The notes under the pieces were generated by a model. The model had not been told where the DNA came from. It ran no database searches and saw nothing but the letters and a program-made list of their open reading frames with translations. A stretch of DNA of 64,000 nucleotides from a bacterium (GTDB lineage Bacteria > UBA8248), in the NCBI GenBank assembly GCA_965203325.1, contig OZ241875.1, positions 192,001 to 256,000 of the forward strand. Reading direction: 5' to 3'. The stretch's first letter is position 1, and the number at the start of each line of letters is the position of its first letter. Of this stretch, positions 38,422 to 45,615 are shown one piece after another. A program made the position numbers and the translations under genes.

Positions 38422-39738
38422 CTAGAAGCTATACACAAAACCCAACTGCAGGCGCGCCGCGTCGCCCTCCTCGCCGCCGTTCGTCTCGCGCCAGCCATGG
38501 ATGTACTCTGCGCCTACCCTGGTCTTGGGCGCGGGTGACCACCAGATGGTGGCGTGCAGCGTCTGGAGCGACTGGCTGAGGGCCGGATGCGCCGCCTTGG
38601 CGGCATCTTCAAAATCGTTCTCCACCCAGCCGTAATACAGACCCGAACTCACGGAGCCGCTCCAGTTGTGCGTGAGGCCGACGAAACCGCCCATGGAATC
38701 GAGCGCCTCCAGTTCGTTGTTTGCACTCAAGATAGCGGCGGCGGAAGCCCCGAGCATGGATTGATCCAATCCGCCCTGGCCGACGTTGAACGTCCCCCAA
38801 AGGCGGGTGTCCTTGCCCAGGCCGATGTTCGCGCCGAGGTGGAGAGCACTCATTGTGACACTTTCTTCCACCGCGCCATCTTCGTAGAGAACCTGCCCCA
38901 ACAACCCCGACACGTTTATGGCGCCCCAACCCGTTTTCATTCGCAGAGCCGCTACAAGGTTCGGAATCCGCTCCTGGGAGGACGTGTTTCCGCCGGCCAT
39001 CAGGATAGTCGGTGCGCTGGGATCCTCGAGCGCGACCTGCATCGTGAGATTATTTCCCATGGCCTGGCTGTAGCGCACCTGGGGCCGACGCGTGGCGACC
39101 ACGCCCACCGGGCCTTCGAAGTCCACCGTGTCGGCGTAGGTGTTCTCGTCCATCAACGTCGTCCAGGTCTGTCCCGCCAGCACCCCGCCCAAAGAGGCGT
39201 AGGCGTGACGAAGGCGAAGCGCATTCTTGGTGCCATAGAAATCGGTTTCGATCCGGGTCTTGAGGTTGCCCATTTTCGTCGGCGTCAGGCTGTCGAAGCG
39301 GAGGCGCGTCTGCCTGGCGTGCAGGGAGGCTTTGCGTTGACCACTGTCATCGCCCTCCAGGAGAATGTAGCTCGCGCCGCCTTCCCAGTCATAGCCGAAA
39401 AAGGAATCACCCAAAGTATGCTGGTCTAAATCATAGATCGCGTCGAGCTTGACGTAGCCGCTGAACGAGACGGAAGTGTTCGATCCCGGCATCTTCCAGG
39501 AACCCGGGAAGTCGCCGGTGGCCACGGCTTTTTTCTGCGCGGCTTCCTGGGCGGCCATCATATCGGCCTTCATCTTCTTCTCCCGGGCTTCGAGAGCTTC
39601 GAGCCGCTCCATGAGCGCCTTGATCTGCGCCTTGAGATCGTCTATCTCGCCTCCAGAGGCCGGCGCGACGAACAACGCCAAGGCCGTTACACATCCAAGA
39701 AGCGCTAAACCGAAACGATTTGTCCGATTTCTCTTCAT
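38422..39738 (-). CDS. DcaP-family outer-membrane porin
   Basis: Signal peptide, coiled coil (IDDLKAQIKALMERLEALE), FSGYVKLD, ARQTRL, LRLRHAY, LAGQTW, C-terminal Phe. Confidence 0.85.
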   Translation of the reverse strand: MKRNRTNRFGLALLGCVTALALFVAPASGGEIDDLKAQIKALMERLEALEAREKKMKADMMAAQEAAQKKAVATGDFPGSWKMPGSNTSVSFSGYVKLDAIYDLDQHTLGDSFFGYDWEGGASYILLEGDDSGQRKASLHARQTRLRFDSLTPTKMGNLKTRIETDFYGTKNALRLRHAYASLGGVLAGQTWTTLMDENTYADTVDFEGPVGVVATRRPQVRYSQAMGNNLTMQVALEDPSAPTILMAGGNTSSQERIPNLVAALRMKTGWGAINVSGLLGQVLYEDGAVEESVTMSALHLGANIGLGKDTRLWGTFNVGQGGLDQSMLGASAAAILSANNELEALDSMGGFVGLTHNWSGSVSSGLYYGWVENDFEDAAKAAHPALSQSLQTLHATIWWSPAPKTRVGAEYIHGWRETNGGEEGDAARLQLGFVYSF

Positions 39739-39931
39739 ATCTCTGTCCCCCGTGAGAAGTTCTGCAAAAGGCGTCCTGTACATGATGAGGCGATTGCATG
39801 AACAACCACCTCTTCGGGTCTCTTATGTCTCGCTTGTCGAGCAAATAATCGGGAGGATGCCTTGCTCACCCTAAATAAAGCGTATGAATGGCCACTCCCC
39901 ACTCTCTAATTGATGTATGTAAACCAATTAC

Positions 39932-39989: not shown

Positions 39990-40856
39990 TCAGGACGCAC
40001 CCAACGCCTTCAGGATGGTTCGCCGAACCAGGACGGGCGTCACCTGCCTTCTGTAGTCGCTGCTTGCGCGGATGTCGGTCAGAGGCTCCAGGTCATCGAG
40101 CGCGCCTGCGAGTACGGCGTCGATGTTCTCCTGGTTGAGTTCCTCCCCCCGGAGCCCTTCTTCCGCCGCCGTTAGACGCCTGAATACGGCCTCCACGCCG
40201 CCCAGGCCGATCCTCACTTCTTTGGCCGTCTTGCCGTCTTCTTCGGTGAGCACCGCCGTGGAGACGGATACGCAGGGCTTGTCCTCTTTCGAGCGCGTGG
40301 TGAAGCGCGTGCACGCCGTCCGGAAGCCATCGGGCAGCGGGTCGACCTCTATCGAGCACAACAATTCATCCTCTTCCAGCGCGCATTCGTAATAGCCCGT
40401 CCAGAATTCCGCAGCGGGAATCACGCGTTCCGTTCCGTCCGCCTTCCTGGCGTTCATCCGGGCCTCGAGCGCAAGAAACGCGCCCGGCGGATCCGAGGCC
40501 GGTTCCGCAAAGCACAGGTTGCCGCCCACCGTCCCCTGGTTTCGGATGCGAATGGTCGCCACGTTGTGGAAGATTTCCGCGAGCAGCGGGAATCGCTCCT
40601 GCACGAGCGGGGAGGTTTCGATCTTGCGGTGCACCGTCTTCGCCCCGATGCGGAGGCCACCGTTTTCGGTTCCTTCGATGAAATCCAGATCCCCCGCTCC
40701 GGCGATGTCAATCAACACCTCGGGTTCGTATACCCGCGATTTCATGAGGATCGAGAGGGCCACGCCGCCGGCGAACACTTTCCCGTCTTCGCCGTGCTCC
40801 TTCAGGGCGGCGAGCGTTTCCTCCGCGCTGTTCGCGGGTAGATGCCGAAAAGCCAT
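39990..40856 (-). CDS. Molybdenum hydroxylase FAD-binding subunit
   Basis: FAGGVAL, RIRNQGTVGGNL, DIRASSDYR. Confidence 0.9.
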   Translation of the reverse strand: MAFRHLPANSAEETLAALKEHGEDGKVFAGGVALSILMKSRVYEPEVLIDIAGAGDLDFIEGTENGGLRIGAKTVHRKIETSPLVQERFPLLAEIFHNVATIRIRNQGTVGGNLCFAEPASDPPGAFLALEARMNARKADGTERVIPAAEFWTGYYECALEEDELLCSIEVDPLPDGFRTACTRFTTRSKEDKPCVSVSTAVLTEEDGKTAKEVRIGLGGVEAVFRRLTAAEEGLRGEELNQENIDAVLAGALDDLEPLTDIRASSDYRRQVTPVLVRRTILKALGAS

Positions 40857-40875
40857 TTTTTCTCCCCTCTCCTCG

Positions 40876-43161
40876 TTATTCGCCGTTTTTCTCGTTGAGC
40901 GCGGTCAGCACCTTCTCCGGCGTTATCGGCAGCGACGTGATCCGCACGCCGACGGCGTCGTAGATCGCGTTGCCTATCGCCGCCGAAGTCCCCAGTTGCG
41001 CCATCTCCCCCAGCCCCTTCGCGCCGAAAGGCCCCGAAGGGTTCTCCGTCTCGATGAGCACCGCTTCGAGTTCGGGCAGATCCTGGGTGGTGGGCAGCTT
41101 GTAGTCGAGCCAGTTCGGATTCACCGGCTGGCCGTCTTCGACCGCGAAATCCTCCATCATGGCGTAGCCCACGCCCATTACCGCGCCGCCGTCCAGCTGG
41201 CCCTGCGCGCCGGCGGGATTCACGATGGTTCCGCAGTCGTTCGTGCTGATGACGCGCAACACCTCGAACGCGCCGGTTTCGGTGTCCACTTCCACCTCGG
41301 CCACCTTCGCACCGTAGGCATACGCCGCGGACCAGTTTCCGTAGCCCGTCACGGGGTCGGGCGTCTCGCTCGGCGAGTCATAAGAGGACGCCGTGTAGAC
41401 GGCCTCGCTGCCCTCTTTCTCGTAAAGTTTCATGTAGGCTTCGCTGTGGGTCACCTGCCGCTCGGGGGAGCTGGCGACGAAAATCTTGCCGTCACGCGCG
41501 TCGAGGTCCTTCGGGTCGCATTCGAGCAGTTCCGCCGCGCCCCTGAAGAGCATGTTCTTCGCCTGGACCGACGCCAGGCGCGTCGCCTCGCCGTCGATGG
41601 TCGTCGTGCGGCTTCCGCGCACGCCCCAGCCGTAGGGGTTCACCGCGGTATCGCCGTTGATGATCCGCACGTCCTCCACGCGCACCCCAATCGCCTCGGC
41701 GCAAATCTGGGCGAGCGTGGTGTCCGAACCGTTGCCCATCTCGATGGTGCCCGAGAGCAACTGCACGGTGCCGTCCTTGTTCATCTTGATGAACGCGCCC
41801 GCCGTCTCCGGCCCCATCGCGCGCGCTCCGGTGAAATGAACCGCGGCGGCCAGCCCGAAGCCACGCCTTTTCCCGTTGCTGCTCGGCTGTTTCTCACCCC
41901 AGGGCACGCGCTTGACCGCCTCTCCCACGCATTCGGCGACGCCGCAACTGGTAATCTTGGCCCCGATGATGGTGGTGTCGCCCTTCCTCACGAAGTTCTT
42001 GATGCGAAACTCCGCCGGGTCCATGCCGATCTCCTCGGCGTGTTTCTCCATGGCGAGTTCGGAGCCAAACGCATAGCCCGCGTTGCCGATTCCGCGCATC
42101 GCGCCGCCGGGCGGCACGTTCGTGCAGACGACGTCGGCGTGATGGCGATAGGCCTTGTAGTTGTAGATGCTCCCGCCCATGTGCGCCGTGATGCCGCCGA
42201 CCGCCGGGCTGTAATCCGAATACCCGCCGTTTTCCACCACCATCTGGGTGTCGCGGGCGAGCAGCATGCCGTCCTTGTCGGTGGCGATGCGCCAGACGTG
42301 GAACTGCTTCGTCCGGTGGGTACCGAGGAGAAACTCCTCTTCTCGCGTGTAGTAGAATTTTACGGGGAGGTTCAGCTTTTTCGCCGCGATGATGGAGAGG
42401 AAATCAATGTTGAACTTGCTCGTCGCCTTCCCGCCGAAACCCCCGCCCACGTAGTTCGTGATCACGCGAATCTGGGCCTCGGGGATCTTGAGGAGTTTTG
42501 AGAAATACTGGCTCGATAGACTCGGGCATTGCGAGGAATTGTAGACCGTCACGTCGCCTTTCTGCGACCACTCGGCGATGGAGACGTGCGACTCCAGAGA
42601 GCCGTGCATCTGGCGCGAGGAGGAGGTGGCCAACTCGCTCACGTGATGGGCCTCGTCGAACATGCGGTCCACGTCGCCGAACTCCATGTGCTTGGTGAAG
42701 GCGATGTTGTCCGGGTACCTGTCGTGGATGACGGGTGCGCCCTCTTTCATCGCTTCTCTCGGGTCGAAGACGGCGGGAAGCTCCTCGTAGTCCACGTCGA
42801 TCAGATCGAGCGCCTCAATCGCGATGTCTTCAGAAATCGCCACAACGGCCGCTACCGAGTCGCCCACGTGCCGCACCTTGTCCGAGGCGAGGGGATGCTG
42901 ATCGTAGCAAACGGGTACGACGCCCCATTCCACTCCCTCGGGGATATCCTTGGACGTCATCACGAGCTTGACGCCGGGGAGCCTCTCGGCGCGGCTGGTG
43001 TCGATGTTCTTGATCCGCGCGTGCGGCAGGGGACTCCCGAGCAGCCTCCCGTGGAGCATTTTGGGCAACTGAAGGTCCAGGGTGAACATGGCCCGGCCCG
43101 TCACCTTTTCCGGCCCGTCGACGCGGGGTATGCTTTTTCCGATGTATGAGAGTTCAGCCAT
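40876..43161 (-). CDS. Xanthine-dehydrogenase-family molybdopterin-binding subunit
   Basis: RVDGPEKVTG, VGGGFGGK, AMRGIG, EMGNGSDT, GQLDGG, GPFGAKGLGE. Confidence 0.92.
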   Translation of the reverse strand: MAELSYIGKSIPRVDGPEKVTGRAMFTLDLQLPKMLHGRLLGSPLPHARIKNIDTSRAERLPGVKLVMTSKDIPEGVEWGVVPVCYDQHPLASDKVRHVGDSVAAVVAISEDIAIEALDLIDVDYEELPAVFDPREAMKEGAPVIHDRYPDNIAFTKHMEFGDVDRMFDEAHHVSELATSSSRQMHGSLESHVSIAEWSQKGDVTVYNSSQCPSLSSQYFSKLLKIPEAQIRVITNYVGGGFGGKATSKFNIDFLSIIAAKKLNLPVKFYYTREEEFLLGTHRTKQFHVWRIATDKDGMLLARDTQMVVENGGYSDYSPAVGGITAHMGGSIYNYKAYRHHADVVCTNVPPGGAMRGIGNAGYAFGSELAMEKHAEEIGMDPAEFRIKNFVRKGDTTIIGAKITSCGVAECVGEAVKRVPWGEKQPSSNGKRRGFGLAAAVHFTGARAMGPETAGAFIKMNKDGTVQLLSGTIEMGNGSDTTLAQICAEAIGVRVEDVRIINGDTAVNPYGWGVRGSRTTTIDGEATRLASVQAKNMLFRGAAELLECDPKDLDARDGKIFVASSPERQVTHSEAYMKLYEKEGSEAVYTASSYDSPSETPDPVTGYGNWSAAYAYGAKVAEVEVDTETGAFEVLRVISTNDCGTIVNPAGAQGQLDGGAVMGVGYAMMEDFAVEDGQPVNPNWLDYKLPTTQDLPELEAVLIETENPSGPFGAKGLGEMAQLGTSAAIGNAIYDAVGVRITSLPITPEKVLTALNEKNGE

Positions 43162-43320
43162 CACAACCTCCACTCGTTTGCGGCGCCGAACCGCATGCCG
43201 CAGGGCGTTTTTATATTCTTATCCTTTGTTTGATTTTCGAATGAATAGACCACCCCCCCATCGCCATCCCCTCGGGACTCGGCAGAACGCGACGGTATTT
43301 CGCTTGCTTTCGATTCTCGC

Positions 43321-43329
43321 ATTATAACA
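43321..43329 (-). promoter_or_regulatory. Extended -10 element (TGnTATAAT) upstream of the Mo-subunit gene
   Basis: Minus-strand tgttataat about 160 bp upstream of the ATG in a divergent intergenic region. Confidence 0.4.
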
Positions 43330-43504
43330 ACACGAAGGAGAAAACAAAACATCAAAAATCGACGCGGAGAGGCTCCTTGCGCCATCCAGGGGAACCCCTC
43401 CCTCCCGCTTTCTCCCCTTCGGTTTGTGGTGTATCATCCGCCGTACTGAAACCGGAAAATAAACTTTCGAAACATCCCGCAAACACCAGAACTGGAGTAG
43501 CGCA

Positions 43505-44251
43505 ATGCCCATTCGTTTTGATTTTCAGGGCCGAAAGGTCATTCTCACGGGCGCGGCGGGCGCGATGGGAAGCCGCATCCTGCAGGGATACATCGAGGCC
43601 GGCGCCAGGGTTTTCGCCACCGACAGGGAAGGCCCGGCGTTCGACGCGATCGAAGGCCCGTCCGATCAACTCTTCAAGCTCCCCTGCGACCTCGCCGACG
43701 TGGACGCCATCCGCACCACCATGCGCGCGGCGCTCGAATGGCTGGGCGGCTGCGACGTGCTGGCGAACGTGGCCGGCTACATGCCGATCCGCCCGCCGAT
43801 GGAACTCGAAGAGGAAGACTGGAACGTCGTGCTGAACGTGAACCTGCTGGCGCCCTATTTCTGCATCCAGGAGACCATCGAGGCGCTCAAGTCCTCGGGG
43901 ACGGGGCGCATCGTCAGCTTCGCGTCCATCGCGGGGAAAATGGGGGGCATCGGCCCGAACCTCACCTACTCCGCCGCCAAGGCGGGCCTGCTCGCCATGA
44001 CGTTCAACCTCGCGCGCGAATTGGCGAAAACGGGCGTGACGATCAACACCATACAACCCGGTCCGGCCGATACGGGCCTTCACTTCCAGTCCCCGCCCGA
44101 GATGCTCGTGAACGCCGAGAAGGCCCATCCCATGGGCAGGCTCACGACGCCCGAGGACGTGTGGCAGACCGTCCTGTTCCTATCGAGCGAGGAAGCCGCC
44201 CACATCAACGGCGAGGCGGTGGACGTGAACGGCGGCTTCTGGACGGACTAG
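43505..44251 (+). CDS. SDR family oxidoreductase
   Basis: TGAAGAMG, NVAG, YSAAK, VDVNGG. Confidence 0.9.
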   Translation: MPIRFDFQGRKVILTGAAGAMGSRILQGYIEAGARVFATDREGPAFDAIEGPSDQLFKLPCDLADVDAIRTTMRAALEWLGGCDVLANVAGYMPIRPPMELEEEDWNVVLNVNLLAPYFCIQETIEALKSSGTGRIVSFASIAGKMGGIGPNLTYSAAKAGLLAMTFNLARELAKTGVTINTIQPGPADTGLHFQSPPEMLVNAEKAHPMGRLTTPEDVWQTVLFLSSEEAAHINGEAVDVNGGFWTD

Positions 44252-44263
44252 GAGGAGAACACC

Positions 44264-45100
44264 ATGCCGAGCGACAACCCGAAAGGATATGCGAACCCCG
44301 ACCTGCTCTGGTCGGCAGCACTTCTCAAAGAGCGCATGGACGACCCGAATGTAAGGATCATCGACACGCGCCCCGGCGAGCGCTATACGATGGGCCACAT
44401 CCCCGGCGCGCGGCACTTCGACGTCTACGGCGTGAACAGCGACGATTCGGACGAGGCGCCCTTGAGAAATTTCTTCTCCATGTGGGCGTTCCTGCTCGGG
44501 AACCGCGGGGTGTCGTTCGAGAACACCATCGTCTTCTATGATGACTTCGTCGGCAACACGAGCGTGCGCGGCTTCTGGATGCTGGAGCTTTTCGGCCACA
44601 AGGACGTGCACGTGCTCGACGGCGGCTACGGCGCCTGGGAGCGGGCGGGCTACGAGACGACGCGCGACGCCGAGGTGCCCAAGGCCGCTTCTTTCCAAAT
44701 GGCGTTCGAACCGGAGCGCCTCGCCACGCGCGAGGACGTGCTGGCCGCCATCGAGGATGACAACCACATGCTGCTCGACACCCGCTCGGTTGAGGAATGG
44801 GAGGGGCGCAGCATGCGCGCCAGGCGCAGCGGCATCATCCCCGGCGCGGTCTGGCAGGAGTGGCTCCAGCACCTGACGCCTGAGGGCGAGATGAAGCCGG
44901 CGGATGAGCTTCGCGCGCAGTTCGAGGCCATCGGGGTCACGCCCGAGAAAGAAGTGACCGCCTACTGACAGACGGGCTACCGTGCGGCGCACGGTTACTT
45001 CGCCCTGCGGCTTCTGGACTACCCCAAAGTGAGAAACTACATGAGCTCCTGGAAGGAATGGGGCAACCGCGACGACACGCCCATCGTGCAGGCGCAATAG
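44264..45100 (+). CDS. Two-domain rhodanese/sulfurtransferase, probable selenoprotein (Sec235)
   Basis: The track ORF stops at TGA 44966-44968. Read-through gives VTAY-U-QTGYRAAHGYFALRLLDYPKVRNYMSSWKEWGNRDDTPIVQAQ*, restoring the active-site loop and the C-terminal rhodanese signature. Confidence 0.9.
44979..44995 (+). promoter_or_regulatory. Candidate bacterial SECIS hairpin
   Basis: ACCGUG-CGGCG-CACGGU, a perfect 6-7 bp stem starting 11 nt after the UGA, with G in the apical loop. Confidence 0.6.
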
Positions 45101-45189
45101 CGCGCCTACTCAGGATGAGGCTTTGTTGAGGACCTGCGCGGGCTGGGACGCTCGGGGATTTCCCTGGATCCGCGAGGGACTCCGCCCTT

Positions 45190-45615
45190 TCACACCTCCC
45201 TCGGGTGCAGTTCTTCGTACTTGCCGTGATCCGTGTCGATATCCGCCATGTGGCGGAAGATTTCCTCATACCCCGGCGGTGAGAACATCCACAGGAGTTT
45301 CAGGGGAACGTCGCCGGTGTTCCTCAGGCCGTGCTCCACGCCCACGGGCAGAAAGGCGGTCATGCCCGCCTTGACCTGGTAGACCTCGCCGTCCACCTCC
45401 ACTTCGGCTTCACCCTCGTGGAAGAAGAGGATTTCTTCTTCTTTCTCATGCAGATGGACGGGAATGCCGCCGCCGACGGGGATGTCCTGATTCCCCATGC
45501 TGAGCATTCGGGAGTTCGTGTTCCGGGGGTCGATGAGGATGCGCCAGCCCCGGGGCAGTTCTATATCGACCATCTCGATCTTTTCGCCGTCGTCCCAATC
45601 GAACACGTATGTCAT
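45190..45615 (-). CDS. Cupin-domain protein
   Basis: PVHLHEKEEEILF, G.TAFLP.GVEHGLRN, WMFSPPG. Confidence 0.85.
   Translation of the reverse strand: MTYVFDWDDGEKIEMVDIELPRGWRILIDPRNTNSRMLSMGNQDIPVGGGIPVHLHEKEEEILFFHEGEAEVEVDGEVYQVKAGMTAFLPVGVEHGLRNTGDVPLKLLWMFSPPGYEEIFRHMADIDTDHGKYEELHPREV

Follow-up and report, generated by a model that had tools for sequence, protein, structure and literature searches.

Within the window, by which we mean the whole 64,000-nt stretch of contig OZ241875.1 under study, we identified a forward-strand gene at 44264..45100 that we annotate, from Pfam, solved structures and an alignment to Cys homologues, as a complete coding sequence for a putative two-domain Sec-rhodanese of 278 residues with selenocysteine at position 235 (U235). 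The outer limits of this 837-base frame are an ATG at 44264 and a TAG at 45098-45100, and a Shine-Dalgarno-like GGAGGAG (44251..44257, same strand) lies 6 nt ahead of the ATG. Translation table 11 stops the open reading frame (44264-44968) at a TGA at 44966-44968, giving 234 aa, and translation of the same frame past this TGA continues for 43 codons until the TAG. The residues around the UGA read ...E-V-T-A-Y-U-Q-T-G-Y-R..., and the tail that follows contains V-R-N-Y-M-S-S-W-K-E-W-G.

The gene lies 12 nt downstream of an SDR-family (short-chain dehydrogenase) gene on the same strand (43505..44251; Pfam adh_short_C2, 5.1e-46). On the opposite strand are the genes for an FAD subunit and a large molybdenum subunit of the xanthine-dehydrogenase family (39990-43173; top NCBIfam model 4-hydroxybenzoyl-CoA reductase alpha, below its cut-off), with the large molybdenum hydroxylase subunit itself at 40876..43173 (Pfam MoCoBD_1, MoCoBD_2 and Ald_Xan_dh_C), and a DcaP-like porin gene is located at 38422-39783. 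A scan of 43100-45300 for promoters and terminators found nothing beyond shuffle expectation.

The UGA lies at the catalytic position of a tandem rhodanese

Pfam recognizes two PF00581 stretches in the read-through protein (3.1e-34), i.e., the tandem rhodanese, SseA-type architecture. The nearest solved structures are 1uar, a Thermus rhodanese (1.5e-43), and 1e0c, the RhdA of A. vinelandii (2.7e-42), and these align end to end. U235, encoded by the UGA at 44966..44968 (+) within the motif Y-U-Q-T-G-Y-R (UxxG), is aligned with chain position 230 of 1e0c, in H-C-Q-T-H-H-R-S, which we take to be the catalytic Cys of that enzyme. The same column holds an invariant Cys in 12 of 12 full-length homologues (54-71% identity). 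These results bear out an earlier note on this DNA, made from the sequence alone, which had proposed that the reading frame stops at TGA 44966 exactly where rhodaneses carry their active-site Cys, had suggested an alignment to Cys homologues as a check, and had described the 43 further codons with the C-terminal signature VRNY..SW.EWG, now confirmed in the translation.

The top NCBIfam model for the protein is NF008557 (SseA, 3-mercaptopyruvate sulfurtransferase), to which residues 16-277 align with 147 bits against a curated cut-off of 250; because of this score we class the protein as a tandem-type rhodanese and not as an SseA equivalog. Longer homologues of 313-436 aa contain, according to Pfam, rhodanese domains only, and therefore give no hint to function.

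A predicted SECIS element directly follows the UGA

We predict a SECIS element at 44974..45005 on the forward strand, based on a consensus fold, frozen synonymous sites, a geometry matching that of the selD hairpin, and its absence from Cys orthologues. The hairpin that the earlier note had described just after the UGA is indeed present at 44979-44995: ACCGUG (44979-44984) pairs with CACGGU (44990-44995), 10 nt separate the first arm from the UGA, and the loop contains G. In the ViennaRNA fold the stem grows to 7 bp (ACCGUGC/GCACGGU) and closes on a GGC triloop, so that the upper stem pairs 44979-44985 with 44989-44995 around the apical loop at 44986-44988; a weaker lower stem is formed by GGGC (44974-44977) and GCCC (45002-45005). 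The apical loop begins 17 nt past the UGA. The gene therefore has the stem-loop just 3′ of the UGA, with a G in its apical loop, by which a bacterial SECIS is recognized. In the usual model of such elements, both the triloop and the 17-nt distance fall towards the lower limit.

The 17-mer of the hairpin occurs once in the 64-kb window versus 0 expected from shuffles. In the genome as a whole, 221 of 125,639 TGA trinucleotides (0.18%) are followed by a hairpin of a strict class (7 bp or more in the stem, and a 3-5-nt loop that opens with GG and starts 16-20 nt after the TGA), a class that was drawn up post hoc, once the hairpin had been seen. Since the 71-nt stretch folds with an energy that is typical of its shuffles (z = 0.28), the case for the hairpin is one of position and conservation, not of stability. 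An Rfam scan of 44800-45200 returned no SECIS family, and its single match was a chance miRNA (E = 1.6). Among 25 sequences we saw no compensatory change in the hairpin, because the element is almost invariant; four of the 25 carry one-sided, pair-breaking changes (C.A in L039 and L041; A.C in L038 and L042, at the stem base).

TGA, hairpin and downstream frame are conserved

A database search returned 810 homologues at E <= 1e-3. Among the best 120 of these, which we examined, each of the 25 closest proteins (72-97% identity) has a length of exactly 234 aa and terminates in ...A-Y; 94 others, including every full-length match (54-71% identity), have Cys at the site, and one is a fragment. The 234-aa proteins have public names such as “sulfurtransferase”, “rhodanese-like domain-containing protein” and “thiosulfate/3-mercaptopyruvate sulfurtransferase”. 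A contig search of other genomes, many of them labelled Nitrospinota, identified 26 related rhodanese loci, and in 24 of the 26 the codon is likewise TGA, the hairpin is present, and the frame beyond it is open and conserved. The exceptions are L046, which is frameshifted, and L047, which is ended by a contig edge; all 24 loci that reach the UGA site intact are free of further stops and frameshifts. Sponge metagenomes are among the closest DNA holders for these genomes.

L046 belongs to a second copy of the SDR-rhodanese-cupin region, located on another contig of the assembly that contains L038 (G032:C3), and its rhodanese frame shifts after about residue 66. Decay of a duplicate, strain variation or a fault in the assembly could each account for this copy.

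Our search of 51 genomes of the phylum returned 33 rows with exactly one TGA, from 32 genomes of the genera g1, g2, g3 and g9, at 74-100% identity. The next-best orthologues (G039-G041, 65-69% identity), from three other genera of the same family, contain no stop; they carry TGC, and their sequence forms no hairpin. Adjoining the active-site loop is R-A-A-H-G in the Sec clade and R-S-A-H-A in the Cys orthologues, and both residue differences fall on the two hairpin stem arms, which suggests that the RNA signal may have shaped the enzyme sequence at these arms.

Comparison with nine orthologues gave dN of 0.014-0.114 and dS of 0.32-1.8 for codons +10 to +39 after the UGA; for one of the nine, dS was saturated and hence undefined. 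The upstream part of the gene gave dN of 0.039-0.176 and dS of 0.29-1.07, so that the tail is constrained to a similar or stricter degree. Since dN is far below dS in codons +10 to +39, the tail is translated in this frame. Over the hairpin itself (codons +1 to +9), dS for the same nine orthologues is only 0-0.16. Mean codon entropy is 0.116 bit over these nine codons versus 0.646 upstream and 0.805 downstream, and the 9-codon windows that cover the UGA and the hairpin have the lowest entropy of the 207 along the gene. Such frozen synonymous sites are the signature of a putative RNA element overlaid on coding sequence.

Contigs that cross the UGA are present in three RNA libraries (X17 record 3, X18 record 6 and X20 record 9) and in one independent DNA run (X3 record 12), and among the differences listed for them none is at 44966-68 or in the hairpin. 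As DNA can be present in RNA libraries, and these are contigs only, we take them neither as proof of expression nor as a full check of the codon.

The neighbours are conserved to different degrees. The SDR gene is directly upstream of the rhodanese in all 26 related loci, and it also occurs beside Cys homologues in two of four loci (L152 and L153); the SDR gene and the Sec-rhodanese gene are probably co-transcribed operon partners. The divergent molybdenum hydroxylase gene is present in 23 of 26 loci, and cupin and luciferase-like genes downstream in only 10 of 26. All neighbours score below the NCBIfam equivalog cut-offs, so no pathway can be assigned.

Sec machinery and other probable selenoprotein genes in the host genome

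The host genome is a single 4.39-Mb contig, 95.5% complete, and contains all four components of the Sec machinery. We identified a tRNA-Sec (75.9 bits against a gathering score of 47), which ARAGORN calls as tRNA-SeC with anticodon TCA; SelA (511.6 bits, over its curated cut-off); SelB (392.8 bits against a cut-off of 242); and SelD (333 bits, over its curated cut-off). The selD gene contains one in-frame TGA of its own, in the context ...A-G-G-U-G-S-K..., after which comes a stem of 7 bp capped by a GGA triloop that starts 17 nt downstream. The selD and rhodanese hairpins share this geometry (17 nt, 7 bp) and have GGA and GGC loops, respectively.

In a crude scan of the genome we looked for TGAs between two open segments with a hairpin of this kind behind them, and chose eight further candidates by eye from its output. 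Pfam assigned seven of these eight to classic selenoprotein families, the U occupying the redox site. These seven further probable selenoprotein genes (L050-L056) encode an OsmC-like protein, GrdB, a GrdB-like protein with U-P-L-C, two DsbA-like proteins and two CMD/AhpD-like proteins; their TGAs are located on the host contig at 1608132(+), 522902(-), 2665621(-), 675800(-), 761590(-), 2629528(-) and 3106910(+), and each has a GG-loop hairpin 17-20 nt past the UGA. As the candidates came through a hairpin filter, they show that the filter catches real selenoproteins and give no measure of its specificity. The eighth candidate, DnaX (L057), was rejected, its TGA being upstream of the real start.

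The scan also showed at least six copies of an open reading frame whose in-frame TGA always has the surroundings ...W-A-R-M-L-T-R-(TGA)-G-S-P-P..., for example at 981268(+), 3838773(+), 4238058(+), 1988943(-), 2072267(-) and 731242(-) of the host contig. This appears to be the transposase of an insertion sequence, interrupted by a stop or by a programmed recoding site, and not a selenoprotein.

Homologues of YqeB and YqeC (one and two, respectively), which we take to be markers of selenium-dependent molybdenum hydroxylases, i.e., of the selenium-cofactor trait, score over their cut-offs at 4045641-4049837 (L155 and L156) and 2233064-2233708 (L157). Their presence makes it probable that the selenium cofactor of molybdenum hydroxylases is in use in the host too. 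A search of the 95.5%-complete genome for SelU, the tRNA 2-selenouridine synthase, gave no match.

Sec forms of tandem rhodaneses fall into two clades

In a quick maximum-likelihood tree of 88 rows, from which every second Cys form was left out, this lineage's 26 Sec forms group as a single clade (SH-aLRT 99) that lies within Cys forms. We came upon a second Sec clade by way of a 231-aa representative whose sequence stops just short of the Cys position. This clade consists of 33 metagenome loci (L059-L085, L097, L098, L105, L107, L109 and L110) in which a TGA is present directly after the end of the match, with the sequence F-U-Q-G-G-Y-R-S-S-H and a conserved tail, and its sister loci carry TGC or TGT. 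It is separate from the first (SH-aLRT 98), and the tree requires two changes of state; among tandem rhodaneses, at least two replacements of the catalytic Cys by Sec have therefore taken place. In the consensus fold of the RNA downstream of the second-clade UGA there is no obvious standard SECIS: the fold has a 5-bp stem at a distance of just 6 nt from the UGA and, some 35 nt downstream, a small hairpin.

Interpretation of the UGA and alternative readings

We conclude that 44264-45100 very probably encodes a 278-residue tandem rhodanese of the RhdA/SseA-like type in which the catalytic Cys is replaced by Sec at UGA 44966-68. What we observe directly are the sequence features, the Sec machinery, and a UGA, hairpin and downstream frame that are all conserved. 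Together with the Cys of the homologues, these observations support the proposal of the earlier note that this is a 278-aa Sec-rhodanese. That note had also named tests of its proposal. The selA, selB, selD and tRNA-Sec genes that it proposed to look for are all present, the last with a UCA anticodon, and the TGA is retained in relatives (24 of 26 loci; 32 of 51 genomes of the phylum). Decay downstream of the TGA, which it had named as a sign against the proposal, is not seen, the tail being under purifying selection. Its expectation that standard pipelines would truncate the gene is borne out by the 234-aa protein in public records.

Sec insertion itself, and the chemistry and substrate of the enzyme, are what we infer from these data. 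SelB, carrying Sec-tRNA(Sec), would bind the small hairpin inside the codons of the active-site loop, with the hairpin loop 17 nt past the UGA, and would recode the UGA as the ribosome arrives. The protein would then function as Cys rhodaneses do, taking sulfane sulfur (or selenium) onto the active-site chalcogen and handing it to an acceptor, and an Se-S(H) intermediate would stand in for the Cys persulfide.

If the TGA were instead a nonsense mutation, the gene would be truncated or decaying, with a 234-aa product that lacks the catalytic loop. This is the form that public records and gene callers give, and one related copy, L046, is frameshifted; against it, the same TGA is present in 32 genomes at 74-100% identity, dN/dS is well below 1 in the 30 codons past the hairpin, 24 of 24 loci are intact at the site with no further stops or frameshifts, and synonymous sites are frozen over the hairpin. 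We regard truncation or decay as extremely improbable. Hardly more probable is that near-cognate decoding or an altered genetic code has the UGA read as Cys, Trp or Gly. The frame would be open in any code that has TGA as a residue, and Cys at the UGA would likewise yield an active enzyme; however, the genome has a dedicated tRNA-Sec, SelA, SelB and SelD, and the other in-frame TGAs we found are at the redox sites of known selenoprotein families. A simple reassignment would also leave the conserved hairpin without a role. In addition, TGA is the true gene stop in five orthologues (L039-L043), and since these genes end with it, TGA is a stop in this lineage.

The reading that we consider improbable to a lesser degree than these is a selenium-dependent switch, in which termination at the UGA would be the main outcome, full-length protein would be made only with selenium, and the cell would routinely produce the truncated form. 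In bacteria, release factor 2 competes with Sec insertion, and such a switch is compatible with a Sec-rhodanese, the emphasis alone being different. On the other side, nothing suggests that a 234-aa product lacking the catalytic loop has a function, and at E <= 1e-40 the genome contains no second two-domain rhodanese (one match). With the Sec-rhodanese as our preferred reading, the neighbouring genes also allow for a module in which the Sec-rhodanese would pass sulfur or selenium to the molybdenum cofactor of the neighbouring hydroxylase, with the SDR included; the YqeB and YqeC genes are about 3.8 Mb from the rhodanese locus, and we think such a module very unlikely.

The gene has annotation value, in that it and its orthologues are recorded as 234-aa proteins without the catalytic loop, and metabolic readings of these genomes would thus overlook what is predicted to be an active enzyme. 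It adds a well-conserved clade to a selenoprotein family that is predicted only. The presence of Sec and Cys orthologues in one bacterial family also provides a clean pair for asking what benefit Sec brings to a sulfurtransferase. Knowledge of selenoproteins in general is unchanged by this gene.

Comparison with known families

Sec-containing rhodaneses have been catalogued before. The 2005 Sargasso Sea selenoproteome describes a “rhodanese-related sulfurtransferase, COG2897” with three Sec sequences and a SECIS shown (PMC1088965), and the GOS study gives forms assigned to cd01449 (eight sequences) and COG2897 (one sequence) (PMC2398784). A 2022 review places “rhodanase-related sulfurtransferase COG2897 (SseA)” among predicted families (PMC9312934). 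Five rhodanese-like selenoprotein forms, listed as predicted, are given in a 2026 review, where form 4 in Table 1 is a “rhodanese-related sulfurtransferase” of PF00581 with the motif UxxG (PMC13188914). For the host lineage, the BSepDB paper counts Nitrospinota-labelled MAGs (GTDB UBA8248) among the ten selenoprotein-richest bacteria, with 48-54 genes (PMC13326102).

As far as these sources describe the predicted rhodanese-related sulfurtransferase family, the protein studied here is like it in being a tandem rhodanese, in having Sec for the catalytic Cys and in the UxxG motif (here U-Q-T-G), and further in the SECIS just downstream, the marine origin and the many Cys homologues. The published representatives AACY01016424, MQG53192.1 and MCY3690685.1 are absent among the homologue cluster members listed. 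From the published descriptions, it is likely that the present clade is the COG2897 / form 4 family, which it matches in architecture and motif, although the Nitrospinota-labelled clade may instead be a separate Cys-to-Sec conversion. This is a selenoprotein family catalogued as predicted since 2005, so that the gene is real and not new in kind, and its host lineage is already known as selenoprotein-rich.

Among Cys-based systems, the closest likeness is to RhdA (1e0c) and the Thermus thermophilus rhodanese (1uar), tandem-domain thiosulfate sulfurtransferases with a C-Q-T-x-x-R loop, on whose Cys U235 falls. Where these enzymes use Cys, the protein here is predicted to use Sec, and its loop reads Q-T-G-Y-R-A versus Q-T-H-H-R-S in RhdA. 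E. coli SseA is the best NCBIfam relation (NF008557), yet the score of the Sec-rhodanese is under the equivalog cut-off. To these known systems our analysis adds the match in SECIS geometry with selD, a pair of Sec and Cys orthologues in one bacterial family, and two independent conversions from Cys to Sec.
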